A stretch of DNA of 64,000 nt from an uncultured Rikenellaceae bacterium (GCA_964446825.1 CAYUQR010000015.1:125-64124), one strand, 5' to 3'. Shown: positions 41,926-49,160, counted from the stretch's first letter. A program made the numbers and translations. The notes: a model not told the origin generated them from the sequence alone.

Positions 41926-42501
41926 ATGAAAATATGTGTCTTTGCTTCATCAAGCAGCCTTATTGACGTTGAATATGCGGTTGCGGCCTCCAGGCTGGGG
42001 TTTCTGCTTGCCAGAGAGAAAATGGAAGTAATATTCGGAGGTGGGGGCATCGGGCTGATGGGAAAGCTGGCAGATTCTGTTCTTGAAAACGGAGGTAAAA
42101 TAACCGGCGTCATTCCGTCTTTTATGAAAGATGAAGGATGGGACCATGCGCATGTTAATGAGATGATTATAACTTCCGATATGGGAGACAGAAAAAAAAC
42201 TATGTTCTCAATGGCAGAAGGCATTGTGGCTCTCCCGGGAGGTGTCGGAACACTTGAAGAACTGACTGAAGCAATAACACTTAAACAGCTGGGCATTTTT
42301 AAAGGGCCCATAGTAATACTGAATACTCTTGGCTTCTATAATTCACTGGTTGAATTCCTCGATCATATGATCTCAGGTCATTTCCTGAGATATCAACACA
42401 AAGGAATGTGGGAAATTGCAGATACTCCTGAAAAAGTTATGGAATATCTCACAAAAAATGAGGAATGGATCCGCGATCCCAGAAGCATTGCAAAAATTTA
42501 A
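41926..42501 (+). CDS. LOG-family (TIGR00730) nucleotide phosphoribohydrolase
   Basis: 191-aa ORF with GGGGIGLMG and PGGVGTLEEL motifs. Confidence 0.88.
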   Translation: MKICVFASSSSLIDVEYAVAASRLGFLLAREKMEVIFGGGGIGLMGKLADSVLENGGKITGVIPSFMKDEGWDHAHVNEMIITSDMGDRKKTMFSMAEGIVALPGGVGTLEELTEAITLKQLGIFKGPIVILNTLGFYNSLVEFLDHMISGHFLRYQHKGMWEIADTPEKVMEYLTKNEEWIRDPRSIAKI

Positions 42502-45500
42502 TTACCAGGTATTTTGGTACCGATGAACAGAATATCATCAACCTGATCCAGATCACCTTTCCAATCCAATATTGTCTTTTCCAGCTTATTCTTCTGTTCA
42601 TTCACCGGGAGATCCCAGATTTCTGAGAGCAGCCTTTTAACATTAACTGATTTGAATTTTTTAACTTCAGGCGACCCGAACTGATCTGCGTACCCGTCTG
42701 AACAAATATATAACATATCACCAGGCTGTATATCAACTGTTTGATTTGTAAAAGTCTTTTTTTCATCCATAGTTGTCATACCAATCGGAAACCTGTCACC
42801 TTTATAAACAAATACTTCACCTTTCCTGACTACATACAGCGGGTTATAGGCTCCTGCAAATTCAACTGTAAAATTCTTTTTATTAAAAGCTATCAGGGCC
42901 AGATCCATCCCATCTTTAATTTCTTTTTCATGACGTTGCAAAAGAGACTTCATTACCTCTATATTGAGCTGATCAAGAATTGCTGATGGCCTGGTAAGAC
43001 CATATTCCCTGACGACTTTATTAAATGAGTTATGACCAATTATTGACATAAATGCTCCCGGTACACCATGACCTGTGCAGTCAACAGCGGCAATAAACTG
43101 CCAGTCTCCGTTATCATACATCCAGTAAAAATCCCCGCTGACAATATCTTTCGGCATAAACAACACAAAAGTTTCCTTAAAAATATCTTCCCTCGGAAGC
43201 ATGGCCCTCTGTATACGCTCGGCATACCTTATGCTTGCCGTTATATCCCTGTTTTTCTCTTCAATCACTTTGCTTTTCTGAACAACCTCTGCCGTCCTTT
43301 CCTTAACCTTTTGCTCAAGGATAATCTTCTCCTTTTTCAGATTCTGTTCCCTTATATTAATGTATGCCACAATAATAAGGATCGTAAAAACAACTACAAT
43401 CATGATAAACCACCATGTCTGATAAAAGGGAGGTTTTATAATAAAATGAAATGTAACAGGTTTACTGTTCCATATTCCATGACTGTTGCTGGCTATAACC
43501 ATGAATGTATATTTCCCGGGAGGCAGGGCAGAATATATTGCACGTGTCTGATCTGTCACCGGACGCCAATCATCATCTGCACCCTCGAGTTTCACTTTGT
43601 ACTTTACAACATCCGGGTTAGTAAGACAAATACTGTAATAGTCAAACAGTATTGATCGCTCATTATAATTTAGTTTCATACCCGGAACCATTTCCCTCGA
43701 CTCATAGTTCACTCTCATCCCCATAATATGGGTAAGAGGTTCCATCTCATCTGTTGAAGTCTTTTCAGGATCGAGACGTGTAGCCCCGGTTGCTGTTCCA
43801 AACCATAAATCACCGGATGAGTCTTTATATACAGCATTTGGTCGTGTTTCAATCCCGGGGAAGCCGTTTCTTTCAGTATAGGAAAATATTCTTTTAGTGT
43901 TGGGGAAATACCTGTTCAACCCATTATTGGTACCAATGTAAATACTTCCATCTTTATCAATGGCCAAAAGATTTATATTATTAGAAAGAAGCCCGTCGTC
44001 CTGGGTAACCGACTTTAATATAGAATCATTCCTGAATGCCAGTAATCCCTCGCTGGTACCTGTCCATAGTACCCCTTTACTGTCCATCACCATTGTTTTT
44101 GGTATAATGCCCCGGAAAACATTTATGGGTTTAAAATCCTTTCTAACAGTTTCATATTTTATCAGACCGGGTTTGTCTCCTTTTGGTTCTGCCCCAATCC
44201 ACATATCACCATGCGGATCACAATAAAGGGATGTTATATTGAAGACAGTCAGGCTGTCAAGAAGGGTATATCGCTGGAAATCCTGTTCACCAATTGTCCC
44301 AACATCAACACCCTCCTGGGTTCCAATCCAAAGATGGTTTTCCCTGTCAATTTCAAGAGCTGTTACCTGTCCGTCGCGGGGAAGAGTTGAGTTTATATAC
44401 GGCTGAGCTTCAAATTCTGAGGTCTTCATATTGTAAAGTATCACACCTCCTTCATTAGCCCCAACCCACAAATTACCGGCACTATCCTGTCTGAAAAACC
44501 TGATATCCTGGTAGATTAAATTATTAGCTTCATTATATATCACCGGGGCTTTAAAGGACCATGGCAAATATTTCGAAATACCGGCATTGGTGCCGAACCA
44601 CATTTCTCCTGATCTATCCTGGTAAATTGCATTGACATTAGGGTCAGGTAATATCTCTTTTTCATTGATTGTAACAAAGGCATCCCCTTTAAAAATAGTA
44701 AGACCGTTATTTTGATCGGCAATAAGTATATTACCTTCAACATCTTCAATTATAGCATATATTCTTGTTGCTTTCAGGCCGTTTTCTGCATTAAATATCT
44801 GTATTTTATCCCCCTTAAAAACGACTATGCCCCCGTCCCAGGTCCCAACCCAGATCCGGCCTTTGCTATCCTCGGTAAGACACATTACAAAGTTGCTTGA
44901 GACTCCAAGCTTCATCAGGTCAATGAACTCCATCCTGCTTTCAGACATTATATACTTATAGAGCCCTCCATTATATGTGCCGAACCATATATTCTCCCTG
45001 CTGTCCTGAAGAAGGCATGTGGAGCTAAAATAGGTTGTCATATGAGGCATCCTGTAGTTCTCAAACTTATCCTCTTCTCTATTATATCGTCTGAGCCCGA
45101 CATCAGCAATACATACAAGTGAACCATCCCTGGTTAATTTGGATCCAAAGACCTGATCGCTAAGACCTTCTTTTCCTCTGTAAAGTTTAGCCTTTATATG
45201 TTTAATATTCTTGACCGGAAAATCAGCCTGAATTGCTCCGTCACTATTTGAAGTAAACCAGATCTTGCCATCCTTTATTACAATGCTGTTAATATCGCCT
45301 GTTATTTTGACAGAATCGAAAGCTATCTGTTCAAATTTACTGCCATCGTACCTTGATATTCCTCCACCGCTCATATGACCAAACCAGATAGATCCCAATG
45401 AGTCCTGTATAATACATCTCACACCTCCGGAACCCAAATTATTTCTTGAGGTAAAATTTTCAAACTTTTTCCCGTCAAACCTCGAAACTCCATTAGCTGT

Positions 45501-45707
45501 TCCAAGCCATATAAAATCTTTTGAATCCTGAAACAGTGTATACACTTTCTGCCCGCTTAACCCCTGTTTTACACCATAATTATCAAAAAAATACTTTTGC
45601 GCCTTTAGTTGTATTACAGTAAGAATCAATAAAAGCACTGACCAGCCAAAAAATTTTACCTGGCGATTAATGAAGTTTATGACTGACATACTATTACTAT
45701 TTTGCAA
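42498..45707 (-). CDS. Periplasmic beta-propeller / Y_Y_Y sensor fused through one TM to a cytoplasmic PP2C (SpoIIE-type) phosphatase
   Basis: 1069-aa ORF with an N-terminal signal/anchor and many two-component-regulator-propeller repeats (WFGT..G..). Y_Y_Y region YKVKLEGADDDWRPV...PGKYTFMVIASN, TM WWFIMIVVVFTILIIVAYINI, a coiled coil, then PP2C motifs SGDFYW, DCTGHGVPGAFMS, DGMDLALI and SDGYADQFG. Confidence 0.88.
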   Translation of the reverse strand: MQNSNSMSVINFINRQVKFFGWSVLLLILTVIQLKAQKYFFDNYGVKQGLSGQKVYTLFQDSKDFIWLGTANGVSRFDGKKFENFTSRNNLGSGGVRCIIQDSLGSIWFGHMSGGGISRYDGSKFEQIAFDSVKITGDINSIVIKDGKIWFTSNSDGAIQADFPVKNIKHIKAKLYRGKEGLSDQVFGSKLTRDGSLVCIADVGLRRYNREEDKFENYRMPHMTTYFSSTCLLQDSRENIWFGTYNGGLYKYIMSESRMEFIDLMKLGVSSNFVMCLTEDSKGRIWVGTWDGGIVVFKGDKIQIFNAENGLKATRIYAIIEDVEGNILIADQNNGLTIFKGDAFVTINEKEILPDPNVNAIYQDRSGEMWFGTNAGISKYLPWSFKAPVIYNEANNLIYQDIRFFRQDSAGNLWVGANEGGVILYNMKTSEFEAQPYINSTLPRDGQVTALEIDRENHLWIGTQEGVDVGTIGEQDFQRYTLLDSLTVFNITSLYCDPHGDMWIGAEPKGDKPGLIKYETVRKDFKPINVFRGIIPKTMVMDSKGVLWTGTSEGLLAFRNDSILKSVTQDDGLLSNNINLLAIDKDGSIYIGTNNGLNRYFPNTKRIFSYTERNGFPGIETRPNAVYKDSSGDLWFGTATGATRLDPEKTSTDEMEPLTHIMGMRVNYESREMVPGMKLNYNERSILFDYYSICLTNPDVVKYKVKLEGADDDWRPVTDQTRAIYSALPPGKYTFMVIASNSHGIWNSKPVTFHFIIKPPFYQTWWFIMIVVVFTILIIVAYINIREQNLKKEKIILEQKVKERTAEVVQKSKVIEEKNRDITASIRYAERIQRAMLPREDIFKETFVLFMPKDIVSGDFYWMYDNGDWQFIAAVDCTGHGVPGAFMSIIGHNSFNKVVREYGLTRPSAILDQLNIEVMKSLLQRHEKEIKDGMDLALIAFNKKNFTVEFAGAYNPLYVVRKGEVFVYKGDRFPIGMTTMDEKKTFTNQTVDIQPGDMLYICSDGYADQFGSPEVKKFKSVNVKRLLSEIWDLPVNEQKNKLEKTILDWKGDLDQVDDILFIGTKIPGN

Positions 45708-48033
45708 TAAAGAAGAATGTTCCGTTCATATCTTCAAGCCCCTGAATCTTTCCAAATTTTGGAGTCTGTCCATTGGTACTTGATACCGCTGCAGTAACAA
45801 ATTTAACAATAGTCTCAATGGGGATACAGGCGTTTCTGTTATTTATAAGCGCGTTTGCAAATGTTGCCGTAAATTTTGAATTATCAGAAGCAAGTTCAGT
45901 ATTGGCAGAAGTAAACACCTGCGCCGACTTGGCACCGGCAACCTGGGTATTATCGCACGTCGGGGCATCATGCGCGGTTCGAGTAGCCATGTAGAATCCG
46001 GGACCTGATTCACATGCATCAGAAACAACAAGAGTGTGGACAATACCGTCACCATAGCCCTGAAGTCCTGCTTTAAGGGCATTGATATTAAAATAGGTAA
46101 ACTCATCATCCCTTTTTGCATCAACTGGGATCCAGTAACCTATATCATTTATGAATTTACCATGACCCGCATACCATATCAATAAAGATTTAACCTGGTT
46201 TTTCTTTACAAGATCGCGAAGCTCGATATTGAAAAACTTCTCCAATTCCGCCTTGGTCATATCTTTCTTGGGAATAAAGTTATTTATCTGGTAATTAGCC
46301 AGGGCTCTCCGTATGGTACTAATATCATTTATTGGGCCATCAAGGCTTGCAAAAGTTTCATAACTTGAATTTTCTATAAAAACAACCCATGTTTTGCCCA
46401 TGGGATTATTGGCTGCGATACCTGCCCCTTCGCGGTTCAGGGTAAATTCTGTTTCCTTCTTATTGCCATAAATATCTTCCGCAATCACAGTAAATTTATT
46501 CAGATTAGAAACATTCAGGATTGCTGTAAAGGCCGGGTTCAACTCATTCCTGTTATAACTGGCGGTAACATCGCCGATAGTAATGGATTTAATCTGGCTT
46601 TGGTCAGAAATTTTTCCCTGAATTGCAATATTTGGAGTGGAAGAATCCAGGAAAACCTGTCCCTCCTCTGATGTGTATGGTGCAATGATATATATTTGCG
46701 GGGGATTTATTTCGGTCCTCTTAAGAGCATAGGTAAGGTCCTTCTCATTGTCATAGTCGTCTTTTGCAGATATCGTAATTCTATTTACTCCTTCAACATT
46801 TATGTTTGCCAAAAAATCATATTGCCCGTTTTTTTCCGCAATGGTCACCGGTTCATTATTGATTGTCATGGACTTAATTTTGCTCTGGTCCTTAAGCTTG
46901 CCTGAAATAATAAGGGAGGTATTGTCCCCTTTTATCTCTATTGTATCCGCAACCGGAACAGGGCTAAGGATCGATATGCTTGGCGGCACTGTTTCCCGGT
47001 TTAACTCGTATAGCCTGTCCTGAGCCTCTTTCAGCAATTTGCGGGCTCTCATGTCAAATTCCGAGAGACTGGTAATTTTATTATAGTCAGCAATTGCCTT
47101 ATCATAATTCAATATTCCTTCATAGGCCTGGGCCCTGGCTGCATAACCGGCAGGATCATCGGGCCTGAGAGAAATAAATTTTGTATAATCGTTAACTGCA
47201 TTTGCCTGCTGGTTAAATTCCATGTAACATTTGCCACGTGCATAATAAAAATCGGAATTTGACGGATCAATTATTATGTCTTTCGAGATATCGTTTATTG
47301 CATTCGGATAATCAAGGTTCCTTTTATAAATATCGCTTCTTACGAGATAGGCATCAGTATTTCTGTCATCATATCTAAGTACCTCATTGCACTGGTCCAT
47401 AGCTTCCTTGGGATCGATGTTAGTAAGGAGTCGTGCCAGCTCAAGCCTGGGTTCAGGCAGTCTCTTGTCTTTTGAGATTGCTTTCTCCAGTTCCTTTTTC
47501 CCCAGCACGTCGTTATTCAATCTCCTGTATATCAGACCCCTCCAATAATAATCCATGGGAGTATCCTTAATTATCAGAGCAGTATCTGAAACTTTCAGAG
47601 CCTGATCATATTTTTCAAGGTTATATAAAGTGATTACCTTTTCAGGATATATTTTAGAATTGCGTTTATCCATGGCAGATGCATGATTAAGGTATTTCAG
47701 GGCCTCATCATAATTATCGGTCTTATTGCACAGGGCTCCGATACTGATTACCAGGTCAACATTCTTTGGTTCAAATACGATTGCCTTTTCATAATCGGCT
47801 TTGGCCTCTGAATATTTTAACAGCTGTTCATAAGCCTGGCCACGGGCATAATAATAATCGGCATCGGAAGGCTCAAGATTGATTGCATTTGTAAATTGCG
47901 CAACTGCATCTTCGTATTTCAGGTTTTCAACAAATTCCTTTCCGGCCTTGTAATACTTCCTGGCATTCTGACCAAAAACACTTAGTGTCACCAGCGACAT
48001 TAAGATTGCCATAAAAAATATTCTCTTATTCAT
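45697..48033 (-). CDS. Secreted TPR-repeat protein with two Ig-like repeats and a C-terminal caspase-like (peptidase C14) domain
   Basis: 778-aa ORF with a signal peptide (MAILMSLVTLSVFGQ) and TPRs at aa ~25-335. There are two ~92-aa internal repeats (aa ~350-441 and 443-535). Caspase dyad: YAGHG (His624, nt 46162..46164) and SDACESG (Cys674, nt 46012..46014). Confidence 0.85.
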   Translation of the reverse strand: MNKRIFFMAILMSLVTLSVFGQNARKYYKAGKEFVENLKYEDAVAQFTNAINLEPSDADYYYARGQAYEQLLKYSEAKADYEKAIVFEPKNVDLVISIGALCNKTDNYDEALKYLNHASAMDKRNSKIYPEKVITLYNLEKYDQALKVSDTALIIKDTPMDYYWRGLIYRRLNNDVLGKKELEKAISKDKRLPEPRLELARLLTNIDPKEAMDQCNEVLRYDDRNTDAYLVRSDIYKRNLDYPNAINDISKDIIIDPSNSDFYYARGKCYMEFNQQANAVNDYTKFISLRPDDPAGYAARAQAYEGILNYDKAIADYNKITSLSEFDMRARKLLKEAQDRLYELNRETVPPSISILSPVPVADTIEIKGDNTSLIISGKLKDQSKIKSMTINNEPVTIAEKNGQYDFLANINVEGVNRITISAKDDYDNEKDLTYALKRTEINPPQIYIIAPYTSEEGQVFLDSSTPNIAIQGKISDQSQIKSITIGDVTASYNRNELNPAFTAILNVSNLNKFTVIAEDIYGNKKETEFTLNREGAGIAANNPMGKTWVVFIENSSYETFASLDGPINDISTIRRALANYQINNFIPKKDMTKAELEKFFNIELRDLVKKNQVKSLLIWYAGHGKFINDIGYWIPVDAKRDDEFTYFNINALKAGLQGYGDGIVHTLVVSDACESGPGFYMATRTAHDAPTCDNTQVAGAKSAQVFTSANTELASDNSKFTATFANALINNRNACIPIETIVKFVTAAVSSTNGQTPKFGKIQGLEDMNGTFFFIAK

Positions 48034-48098
48034 AATCGTATAACTTAATTTTTAACTCCTATCAACTATCAAAAATACAAATATTTATTAATAATATA

Positions 48099-49160
48099 TC
48101 AATCCTTTTTTGGTGTGTTCCAATACGTCTCGAGAGTACTGCCACTATATTCAACAACAGAATCCGGATGTCCTGGTATCAGTGGAGCCTGAATTCCTGA
48201 ATTAAAAAAGCGATTCCCCCTGAATACTCTTGCCTCATCCCATAAACCGCTCTCTATAAAATGATTAAGTACTTTTGCGCCTCCCTCAATGAATAACGAT
48301 TGTATTCCCTCTTTGTACAGATATTCCACTATCTGAAAAGAGGAAGGAGAGTTGTCGCTCAGTTTCACCATTCTGGCATCAGGTATCTTCATCTGAATAT
48401 TATGAGTAAATACTATCAGCGTGCTTTTAGCTTCTCCAGCTGTCAGATCAGCCCCCAGCTTTCCCGAAGCGCTGAGGATTATTCTCAGGGGATCATTCCC
48501 TTTCCACTCTCTTACGTTGAGCCTGGGATTGTCTGCTCTTACAGTTCCGGCTCCTACAAGAATTGCCTGTTCCGAAGCTCTCCATTTATGTACAAGCACT
48601 CTTTCAGGCTTACCCGATATCCAGTGCGGTCCTGTTTTATTATCATCCGATCTCAATATATCTATGTATCCATCAGCACTCTGAGCCCATTTCAGTGTAA
48701 TATAGGGCCTCTTTTTTTCATTAAAGGTGAAAAACCTTCTGTTAAGCCACCTGCACTCTTCCTCAATAACACCTGTAACAACCTCACAACCTGCTGCTTT
48801 TAGTTTCTTAACTCCTTCACCTGATACTTTTTCACTTGTATCAATTGTACCAATCACTACTTTTGGAATAGAACCGGCTATAATATAATCAGAACAGGGA
48901 GGTGTTTTCCCAAAATGAGAACATGGTTCAAGATTGACATACAAAGTTGAATCTTTCAATTTTGATTTATCGGCGACACTGTTTATTGCAATAACTTCTG
49001 CATGAGGCCTACCTGCTTTAAGATGGTAACCTTCTCCAATAATTTTACCATCATGAACAATAACTGACCCTACCAGAGGGTTTGGATAAGTCATGCCTTC
49101 AGCACCTGAAGCAAGCTCAAGGCATCTTCTCATGAATTTATTATCGTCATTCTCTCCCAT
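48099..49160 (-). CDS. ribD: Bifunctional riboflavin biosynthesis protein RibD (deaminase/reductase)
   Basis: 353-aa ORF with zinc deaminase motifs HAEVIA and PCSHFGKTPPC, plus a C-terminal RibD reductase domain. Confidence 0.95.
   Translation of the reverse strand: MGENDDNKFMRRCLELASGAEGMTYPNPLVGSVIVHDGKIIGEGYHLKAGRPHAEVIAINSVADKSKLKDSTLYVNLEPCSHFGKTPPCSDYIIAGSIPKVVIGTIDTSEKVSGEGVKKLKAAGCEVVTGVIEEECRWLNRRFFTFNEKKRPYITLKWAQSADGYIDILRSDDNKTGPHWISGKPERVLVHKWRASEQAILVGAGTVRADNPRLNVREWKGNDPLRIILSASGKLGADLTAGEAKSTLIVFTHNIQMKIPDARMVKLSDNSPSSFQIVEYLYKEGIQSLFIEGGAKVLNHFIESGLWDEARVFRGNRFFNSGIQAPLIPGHPDSVVEYSGSTLETYWNTPKKD

Follow-up and report, generated by a model that had tools for sequence, protein, structure and literature searches.

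A conserved Bacteroidota gene pair encoding a predicted exported caspase-fold protein and a propeller/Y_Y_Y membrane sensor with a SiaA-type phosphatase

In Pseudomonas fluorescens an inner-membrane receptor, LapD, controls a periplasmic cysteine protease, LapG. The caspase-like defence proteases of the TPR-CHAT type (TPR, tetratricopeptide repeat), such as Csx29 of the type III-E CRISPR systems and the gasdermin-activating proteases, are cytoplasmic and are encoded in defence loci. The ectodomains of hybrid two-component system (HTCS) sensors are regarded as glycan sensors. To our knowledge, bacterial caspase homologues are numerous and almost none of them has a known job, and SiaB/SiaC partner switches are known only from the control of biofilm formation in Pseudomonas. 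Fusions to TPRs are common among the bacterial caspase homologues (PMC3501461). In the partner switch of Pseudomonas, Thr68 of SiaC is dephosphorylated by SiaA and phosphorylated by SiaB (PMC7647112), and free SiaC activates the cyclase SiaD (PMC8457831). Here we describe a gene pair located on a 64,000-nucleotide stretch of DNA from an uncultured Rikenellaceae bacterium (GCA_964446825.1 CAYUQR010000015.1:125-64124, referred to as the window), in which gene 1, encoding a predicted exported protein with TPRs, two immunoglobulin (Ig)-like domains and a caspase fold, is followed on the same strand by gene 2, encoding a propeller/Y_Y_Y membrane sensor with a cytoplasmic phosphatase. We tentatively propose, on the basis of sequence comparison and structure prediction, that the gene 1 product may be a periplasmic protease or co-sensor that acts upstream of a SiaABC-like partner switch, a reading to which we give slightly less than an even chance.

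The open reading frame (ORF) of gene 1 lies exactly where an earlier note on this DNA had placed it, and encodes 778 residues (Table 1). Its product starts with MNKR, followed by a hydrophobic core of 17 residues and by a predicted cleavage site between VFG and QN, with the core located by hydropathy at residues 3-23. The residue that would become the mature N-terminus, Gln22, is invariant among the orthologues. On inspection, the N-termini of both gene products resemble the Bacteroidota Sec/signal peptidase I type, in agreement with the signal peptide that the earlier note had given for gene 1, and obey the Q-rule described for signal peptidase I substrates of Bacteroidetes (PMC5837995). No cysteine is present near the signal cleavage site of gene 1, which rules out its reading as a lipoprotein. 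Export as T9SS (type IX secretion system) cargo was rejected as well, with no Pfam match to Por_Secre_tail and with the C-terminus forming a strand of the caspase fold in the structural model. Because it has a signal peptide, and neither a lipobox cysteine nor a T9SS C-terminal domain, we infer that the gene 1 product is a soluble periplasmic protein.

The mature part opens with the TPR stretch of the earlier note, which is covered by Pfam TPR families over residues ~24-325 and is modelled by AlphaFold2 (AF2) as 18 paired helices (residues 40-344) with a predicted local distance difference test (pLDDT) value of ~90. The two beta repeats of ~92 residues that follow are a genuine internal duplication, since the two copies share 32% identity (E 4e-14), and AF2 folds them as beta-sandwiches at residues 352-440 and 446-533; their matches to Ig-like Pfam families are weak (Glucodextran_B, Big_3_3). 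Peptidase_C14 (PF00656) is not listed for gene 1 in the Pfam scan of the whole protein, and is matched once the scan is confined to residues 536-778 (55.2 bits, cut-off 21.4, E 1e-14). The first AF2 model of the whole protein displayed a pLDDT below 50 for this domain because the alignment was shallow; the model of the domain built from 71 diverse sequences reached a pLDDT of 88 and a predicted template modelling score of 0.88. A Foldseek search with this model returned MALT1, caspase-1/-4/-9/-11 and metacaspases, with a probability of 1.0 and template modelling scores of ~0.6.

The His/Cys dyad, which had been noted as intact in the motifs YAGHG and SDACESG, corresponds to His624 and Cys674 (codons 46162..46164 and 46012..46014, minus strand) in this confidently modelled caspase fold. 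In the numbering of the domain model, His624 comes after strand 87-93 and Cys674, in SDACESG, after the next core strand, 137-143, with the cysteine placed by the model. Both residues are invariant in 20 orthologues, and the dyad is present in 196 of 197 full-length relatives, a figure in which the count for the histidine is biased by a search pattern that contained WYAGH. The family profile LLiwYAGHGkf..GYWiPvDA aligns with L-LYYAGHGYE..SFMVPVDA of MALT1, and as the YAGHG of the family falls on the YYAGHG of MALT1, His624 is equated with the catalytic histidine of paracaspases. On these models and alignments, the caspase domain of gene 1 looks catalytically competent. Its P1 specificity may be guessed from the DxC context as Arg/Lys. 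Two further residues, Cys693 (45955..45957) and Cys736 (45826..45828), are invariant throughout the family, including its pseudo-caspases, and may form a structural disulfide in the exported protein. Arg685 (45979..45981), located 11 residues past the catalytic cysteine within a lower-confidence loop of the caspase model, is conserved to at least 90% in the alignment of 71 sequences and is, by analogy with orthocaspases, a candidate autoprocessing site.

TPR-fused caspase-fold proteins raise the question whether the pair serves in conflict or programmed death, with the caspase as an executioner activated by the sensor. Repeat-fused caspase-like proteases do have a general precedent in defence systems, which the earlier note had brought up, and in one distant clade (P0201, locus L287; L and P numbers are our handles for loci and for family representatives) the gene adjoins mobile or defence-like ORF6N and AAA_14 genes. 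We nevertheless consider this explanation highly improbable, and the likeness to conflict or cell-death caspases unsupported: PADLOC matched neither protein, the gene 1 product is predicted to be exported, the neighbours are housekeeping genes in a context that is syntenic across the family, and the downstream partner belongs to a SiaABC-type regulatory switch.

Gene 2 has the architecture claimed for it, with a propeller and Y_Y_Y ectodomain, one transmembrane helix and a SpoIIE/PP2C phosphatase (Pfam scores of 170 bits for Reg_prop, 52 for Y_Y_Y and 62 for SpoIIE). The ectodomain comprises ~720 residues of Reg_prop repeats and Y_Y_Y, and its closest solved counterparts are BT4663 (4A2L/4A2M, E 8e-55), 3V9F and 3OTT. 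From this organization the gene 2 product is predicted to be a type-I membrane sensor. Beyond the transmembrane helix Pfam finds only SpoIIE/PP2C and no HisKA-HATPase-REC-HTH_AraC part, so that, despite an HTCS-type sensor, the protein is not an HTCS. The PP2C domain retains its full set of metal-site motifs (GDF, DCTGHG, SDG and DDI). Residues 796-1064 match NCBIfam SiaA (E 2.8e-54), and the best match in the PDB is the PP2C domain of SiaA itself (6K4E, E 1.3e-34; the next match has an E of 2e-4), while the stretch that had been called a coiled coil aligns with the helical linker of SiaA. The cut-off for full-length SiaA was failed (184.8 against 700 bits, with only the C-terminal 270 residues matching) because the sensor part differs. 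By these comparisons the phosphatase is of the SiaA type.

The assignment is extended by the genes that accompany the pair in distant relatives. Genes for a DUF6272 protein and for SiaC are found directly after the phosphatase gene in L120, L129, L132, L135, L139, L145, L181 and L201, and in L187 they follow a paralogous sensor-PP2C gene located 3 kb upstream of the caspase pair. The DUF6272 protein matches SiaB (6KKO_A, E 6e-16) and the SiaC-type protein (PF09345) matches 6KKO_C/6K4F_U (E 4e-16), 6KKO and 6K4F being the SiaB-SiaC and SiaA-SiaC entries of Pseudomonas. In the Bacteroidota SiaC sequences the phospho-Thr motif LEYFNTSSSK, which corresponds to T68 of Pseudomonas SiaC (PMC7647112), is invariant.

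No SiaB- or SiaC-like gene was found in the 64-kb window itself (tblastn and hidden Markov model (HMM) searches) or, in its family, within 7 kb on either side of the pair. In agreement with the earlier note, no STAS protein, kinase or sigma factor was identified among 12 neighbouring ORFs scanned with Pfam, a subset of the window's ORFs that includes ribD and a LOG-like gene. Scanning with a SiaC alignment recovered a free-standing siaB-siaC pair in 78 of 80 loci. Five assemblies from the window's family contain such a pair (JBJKPQ01, JBEKFE01, DATALC01, JAXLTU01 and CAZTXH01; loci L224, which belongs to JBJKPQ01, the closest relative at 81%, and is Pfam-confirmed, L250, L256, L262 and L278), in each of them on another contig than the caspase-sensor operon, and on the complete chromosome OY762280 a distance of 2.3 Mb separates the two loci. 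The suggestion that the substrate of the phosphatase is encoded elsewhere is thus supported, and the substrate can now be named, most likely a SiaC-type protein. By comparison with these relatives, the genome from which the window comes most likely has siaB and siaC elsewhere on its chromosome. Among the commonest neighbour families of siaB-siaC, checked with Pfam in 75 loci, no GGDEF or SiaD-type cyclase was found.

The free-standing siaB-siaC pairs (L203-L281) have an S41 (CtpA-like) peptidase and an RlmL-like THUMP methyltransferase gene upstream, and in 46 of 75 loci a convergent gene downstream for a fused ABC-2 transporter of ~1025 residues with a long N-terminal cytoplasmic part. The Flavobacteriales locus L187:1-13481 has two to three sensor-PP2C paralogues in tandem, one of them before siaB-siaC and another after the caspase gene, an arrangement that suggests that several sensors may feed one SiaB/SiaC switch.

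The conservation of the pair had to be sought well away from the window, since close relatives share the whole neighbourhood and are therefore uninformative about linkage. Searches for loci with a single protein returned relatives of at least 62% identity only, a word-index protein search those of at least 77% only, and a locus scan with the A3 alignment the window's family only. The close relatives (54-81% identity; 42 loci, later 80) all keep the order recX-prmC-ribD-caspase-sensor-LOG-trx-dnaE, and the synteny of this block extends to each of the 117 loci known from the window's family, with the pair kept in every locus that could be assessed. HMMER searches with the Ig-Ig-caspase part identified a family of ~780-residue proteins with signal peptides, grouped in 112 clusters at 50% identity, with E-values up to 1e-30. 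A locus scan from one distant member (P0161) yielded 80 new loci at 35-38% identity to P0161, which by their record titles belong to Bacteroidales, Prolixibacteraceae/Draconibacterium, Flavobacteriales/Vicingaceae and others. When all ORFs of these loci were searched with profiles, a sensor-PP2C gene was located directly downstream of the caspase gene in 72 of the 78 loci that had enough downstream DNA for assessment. The pair is embedded there among 13 upstream families (ribD and 12 others) and 15 downstream families; on independent metagenome contigs, for instance, it lies behind pyrH in L120 and behind tilS in L121. The caspase and sensor genes are hence co-conserved well outside the local synteny block, a check that the earlier note had asked for, and by this comparison the pair is a putative operon conserved over several Bacteroidota orders.

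Several observations weigh against the proposed partnership, or at least against its being general. The order ribD-caspase-sensor-LOG-trx-dnaE is an old Bacteroidales synteny block, as seen from ribD still being the commonest upstream gene in the distant loci, and because the block is old the adjacency partly reflects inheritance rather than selection. The sensor gene is absent in L142, L158, L185, L122, L125 and L196, all six of which retain an intact caspase dyad; the clade representatives P0183, P0167 and P0201 have other neighbours and no sensor; and sensor-PP2C paralogues without a caspase gene occur in L187 and L209. With sensor genes missing beside intact caspase genes, the partnership is strong and not obligatory. 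The absence of the partner in lineages with a pseudo-caspase (see below), which fits an importance of catalysis for the partnership, is seen in two cases only. Finally, no RNA runs with the sequence of the locus were found; the DNA runs that contain sequence of the window are salt-marsh metagenomes.

On these grounds the two genes could also encode independent envelope proteins that are merely co-transcribed in an old housekeeping block (ribD ... dnaE), with no direct functional link between them. In favour of such independence, the block is syntenic in most of the distant loci and throughout the window's family (117/117 loci), the caspase gene persists after a clean loss of the sensor gene (L142, L158, L185), and several clades lack a sensor gene beside the caspase gene. 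Yet the pair stays together, at a spacing of 5-16 nt, through no fewer than 13 changes of context upstream and 15 downstream, travels with siaB-siaC into other contexts, and reappears in the deepest clades as a C14 gene beside a Reg_prop sensor with other outputs; a chance pairing should moreover be rare, as Reg_prop genes are, by our own rough estimate, a small fraction of a genome. We therefore hold the absence of a functional link to be rather unlikely.

Some loci show rearrangements of their own. In L142, L158 and L185 the order is ribD-caspase-LOG-trx-dnaE, with no trace left of the sensor gene; siaB-siaC (L213) persists in the L158 assembly. Tandem extra copies of caspase-family genes, full or partial, are found directly upstream of the pair in L146, L180, L191 and L199. 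The contig of L069 (JBLNAO010000319.1), which is filed under a Chloroflexota metagenome-assembled genome (MAG), carries the full Bacteroidales ribD-caspase-sensor-LOG-dnaE block at 67% identity and is probably mis-binned.

The deeper clades, as defined by a tree of the family representatives, separate the part of the sensor that is conserved beside the caspase gene from the part that is not. In L284 (P0148) the caspase gene is followed after 36 nt by a gene for a Reg_prop/Y_Y_Y-HisKA-HATPase_c-Response_reg hybrid kinase. In the outermost clade, L289 (P0218) has, after a 10-nt gap, a Reg_prop sensor with a LytS-type His_kinase, with a LytTR regulator 1.2 kb further on, and L290 (P0224) has, 9 nt after the C14 gene, a Reg_prop protein that is cut by the contig end. 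The ectodomain of L284 is colinear with that of the window from the mature N-terminus to Y_Y_Y (30% identity over 724 residues, E 2e-97), and the mature N-terminus of gene 2, QKYFFDNYG, aligns with that of this kinase-type sensor. The conserved neighbour thus appears to be the Reg_prop ectodomain, with an output that is exchangeable between PP2C, a hybrid kinase and a LytS-type kinase. As the three output types share one periplasmic module beside the same protease family, the comparison argues for a functional contact in the periplasm; an earlier preference for a periplasmic link is in this way strengthened by protease genes of the same family that lie beside Reg_prop sensors with kinase outputs.

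The same comparison bears on inside-out control of the LapD-LapG kind, in which the propeller would hold the protease and the internal state of the cell would decide on its release onto an envelope or surface protein. LapD and LapG provide a precedent, and the close coupling of the genes for a protease and a membrane protein is in keeping with this arrangement. The cytoplasmic modules (PP2C, HisKA-HATPase-REC and LytS-type kinase) are, however, transmitters rather than ligand receivers, and because this holds for all three output types inside-out control is the less likely direction; the linkage with siaB/siaC also puts the phosphatase upstream of a cytoplasmic switch. We regard inside-out control as improbable.

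The family also includes pseudo-caspases, with His and/or Cys lost, among its representatives (P0154, P0158, P0170, P0199, P0214, P0219, P0225 and P0231). The two of these lineages whose contigs were inspected, P0219 and P0158 (contigs L282 and L283), have no Reg_prop sensor as a neighbour.

The junction between the two genes carries a terminator-like hairpin, which lies no more than ~30 codons into the sensor gene and at the same place in loci L043-L201. Over 139 non-duplicate loci, the median for the best 44-nt hairpin within 150 nt past the caspase stop is -17.1 kcal/mol, against medians of -11.2 kcal/mol in both control regions, one at the start of gene 1 and the other inside gene 2 (paired Wilcoxon p ~1e-19, on loci that are not phylogenetically independent). 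A T-rich run comes after it in 78 loci. The stem sequences of different clades are unrelated (AGCCAGACAAG/CTTGTCTGGCT, ATTATTCGCC/GGCGAATAAT and GTCATCAGG/CCTGATGAC), and within the window's family 8/8 consensus pairs are formed with double changes that preserve pairing (31 sequences); the copy in the window itself, weakened by one G.G mismatch, folds weakly. We suggest a terminator whose action would depend on the translation of gene 2, and which may set the ratio of protease to sensor.

The propeller pairs, the exchangeable outputs and the hairpin can be combined into a wider proposal, namely that across the Bacteroidota Reg_prop/Y_Y_Y sensors have exported caspase-fold proteases as their dedicated partners in the periplasm, that proteolysis creates or gates the signal of the propeller, that the output module is exchangeable, and that a translation-sensitive intragenic terminator sets the protease-to-sensor ratio. 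In this full form we consider the proposal possible, with doubt outweighing confidence.

For the locus in the window, the protease or co-sensor reading that we favour would operate as follows. The gene 1 protein would be a signal-generating enzyme or co-sensor of the periplasm, whose TPR and Ig-like parts would capture an envelope or imported protein, which the C14 domain would then cleave. The propeller ectodomain would perceive the cleavage product or the enzyme-substrate complex, and its state would set the activity of the PP2C domain and hence the dephosphorylation of a SiaC-type protein at the Thr of LEYFNTSSSK, while SiaB would re-phosphorylate the same protein. Free SiaC would bind a target, with no SiaD-like cyclase encoded nearby. 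That proteolysis is the signal, whether exerted on a ligand or on the ectodomain, we infer purely.

If the ectodomain were the substrate, the exported caspase would cut it or the juxtamembrane linker and so switch the phosphatase or kinase, in the manner of the site-1 cleavage of an anti-sigma factor. The same comparative evidence serves this explanation, since the ectodomain is the conserved partner whatever the output, and the dyad is strictly kept where a sensor adjoins. On the other side, cleavage is irreversible and fits poorly with a reversible phosphatase/kinase switch, and a sensor of 1063 residues would share its operon with its own destroyer. HTCS-type ectodomains are moreover said to work otherwise: in the work on BT4663 (4A2L/4A2M), a stable ectodomain dimer reportedly undergoes ligand-induced movements. 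Cleavage of the sensor itself thus seems to us unlikely.

The boundaries of the two genes were refined at the same junction (Table 1). The earlier note had described an overlap of 11 nt between them, which holds for the longest ORF of gene 2 (42498..45707, minus strand, 1069 residues, with a TTG start at 45707) and disappears with the likelier ATG start at 45689, 18 nt after the TTG and 7 nt past the TAG of gene 1. This ATG was taken as the start because in the relatives, too, the first in-frame ATG is close behind the caspase stop (97 of 185 locus records have it 5-8 nt past the stop, and 144 of 185 at 2-16 nt). By this comparison gene 2 probably starts at the ATG, and the overlap is probably a start-codon artefact.

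Table 1. Positions of the genes, protein domains and junction hairpin of the caspase-sensor locus within the window.
Feature	Coordinates	Strand	Basis
Gene 1: exported (predicted) TPR / Ig-like x2 / caspase-fold (C14) protein, 778 residues	45697..48033	-	ORF, Pfam, AF2
Gene 1, predicted signal peptide, residues 1-21, cleavage between VFG and QN	47971..48033	-	Hydropathy, Gln22, Q-rule
Gene 1, TPR region, residues ~24-345, ~9 repeats	46999..47964	-	Pfam, AF2
Gene 1, two duplicated beta-sandwich (Ig-like) domains, residues 350-535	46429..46986	-	Internal repeat, AF2
Gene 1, caspase-fold C14 domain, residues 546-778	45700..46398	-	PF00656, AF2, Foldseek
Gene 2: sensor phosphatase, 1063 residues from ATG at 45689	42498..45689	-	ORF, start comparison
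Gene 2, predicted signal peptide, cleavage between LKA and QK	45600..45689	-	Hydrophobic residues 10-29, Q-rule
Gene 2, terminator-like hairpin in gene start, CCAGGTAAAATTTTTTGGCTGG	45642..45663	-	7/8 consensus pairs, one G.G mismatch
Gene 2, periplasmic double beta-propeller (Reg_prop) and Y_Y_Y ectodomain	43428..45599	-	Pfam, solved relatives
Gene 2, single transmembrane helix	43344..43430	-	Hydropathy maximum 2.94, residues 754-782 (ATG numbering)
Gene 2, cytoplasmic helical linker and SiaA-type PP2C domain	42516..43322	-	NCBIfam SiaA, PDB 6K4E

Upstream of gene 1 lies ribD (48099..49160), beyond which prmC and recX are divergent; gene 2 is followed by a convergent gene of the LOG family (41926..42501), a thioredoxin gene and dnaE. 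The stop codons of gene 2 (minus strand) and of the LOG-family gene (plus strand) overlap by 4 nt (42498..42501), which leaves no space for a terminator between the two genes. In the 65-nt spacer between ribD and gene 1 (48034..48098), TATTTTTG fits the -7 motif TAnnTTTG of Bacteroidetes ~35 nt before the ATG, a candidate promoter element that was spotted by eye only. The G+C content of the window is uniform at ~0.40, and an exact look-up of a protein of the window returned no database record. The operon, in its four-gene form, is also carried by L181, a MAG labelled as Draconibacterium orientale, and as this species has been cultivated, cultivable carriers of the operon may exist.

The individual parts of this system have been described separately. 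A 2012 operon survey of prokaryotic caspase homologues (PMC3501461) does not describe a caspase-sensor pairing, and a literature search for the domain combination, including full text, returned no paper that links the domains. What appears to be new, from sequence comparison, is that a partner switch of the SiaABC type has an input of the HTCS type and, as an accessory, an exported caspase-fold protein. If the proposed role is correct, it would be the first extracytoplasmic signalling role of a bacterial caspase homologue, and SiaB/SiaC partner switches would acquire a new input logic. One subfamily of caspase homologues now has a role that can be tested, together with a probable location and a defined partner; the SiaB/SiaC switches are widespread in Bacteroidota, where they would be fed by HTCS-type sensors and operate without a SiaD cyclase; and the protease-linked branch suggests that HTCS-type ectodomains can read protein-derived signals too.

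Compared with the described systems, the locus shares with LapD-LapG the coupling, as proposed here, of a periplasmic cysteine protease with that part of an inner-membrane signalling protein which lies in the periplasm; LapG, however, is a transglutaminase-like protease (C93), and LapD receives cyclic di-GMP and signals outward, whereas the cytoplasmic modules found here are transmitters. With TPR-CHAT and Csx29 it has in common a TPR array fused to a caspase-fold protease, from which the gene 1 product differs in being predicted as exported, in its lack of a PADLOC match and in its location in a housekeeping block. Among the C14 homologues of MEROPS, orthocaspases, metacaspases and MALT1 display the same fold and His/Cys dyad, and MALT1 also the YAGHG...VPVDA context; gene 1 stands apart from them by its predicted export, its Ig-like spacers and its genetic tie to a transmembrane sensor. 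The HTCS sensors of Bacteroides (BT4663, 3V9F and BT4673, 3OTT/3VA6) have the same Reg_prop and Y_Y_Y architecture and the same membrane topology as gene 2, whose output is a PP2C instead of HisKA-HATPase-REC-AraC, and which lies outside any polysaccharide utilisation locus and has a protease gene as its partner, where the HTCS sensors have SusC/D and glycosidase genes. The closest system is SiaABCD of Pseudomonas aeruginosa (6K4E, 6K4F, 6KKO): the PP2C domain is closest to that of SiaA, the phospho-Thr motif is kept, and siaB (DUF6272) and siaC come after the phosphatase gene of relatives in the same order. The locus described here differs in that the N-terminal part of SiaA is replaced as input by an HTCS-type double propeller/Y_Y_Y ectodomain, in that no SiaD-like cyclase is found nearby and, in the window's family, siaB/siaC lie apart from the phosphatase gene, and in that the gene of an exported caspase-fold protein precedes that of the phosphatase.

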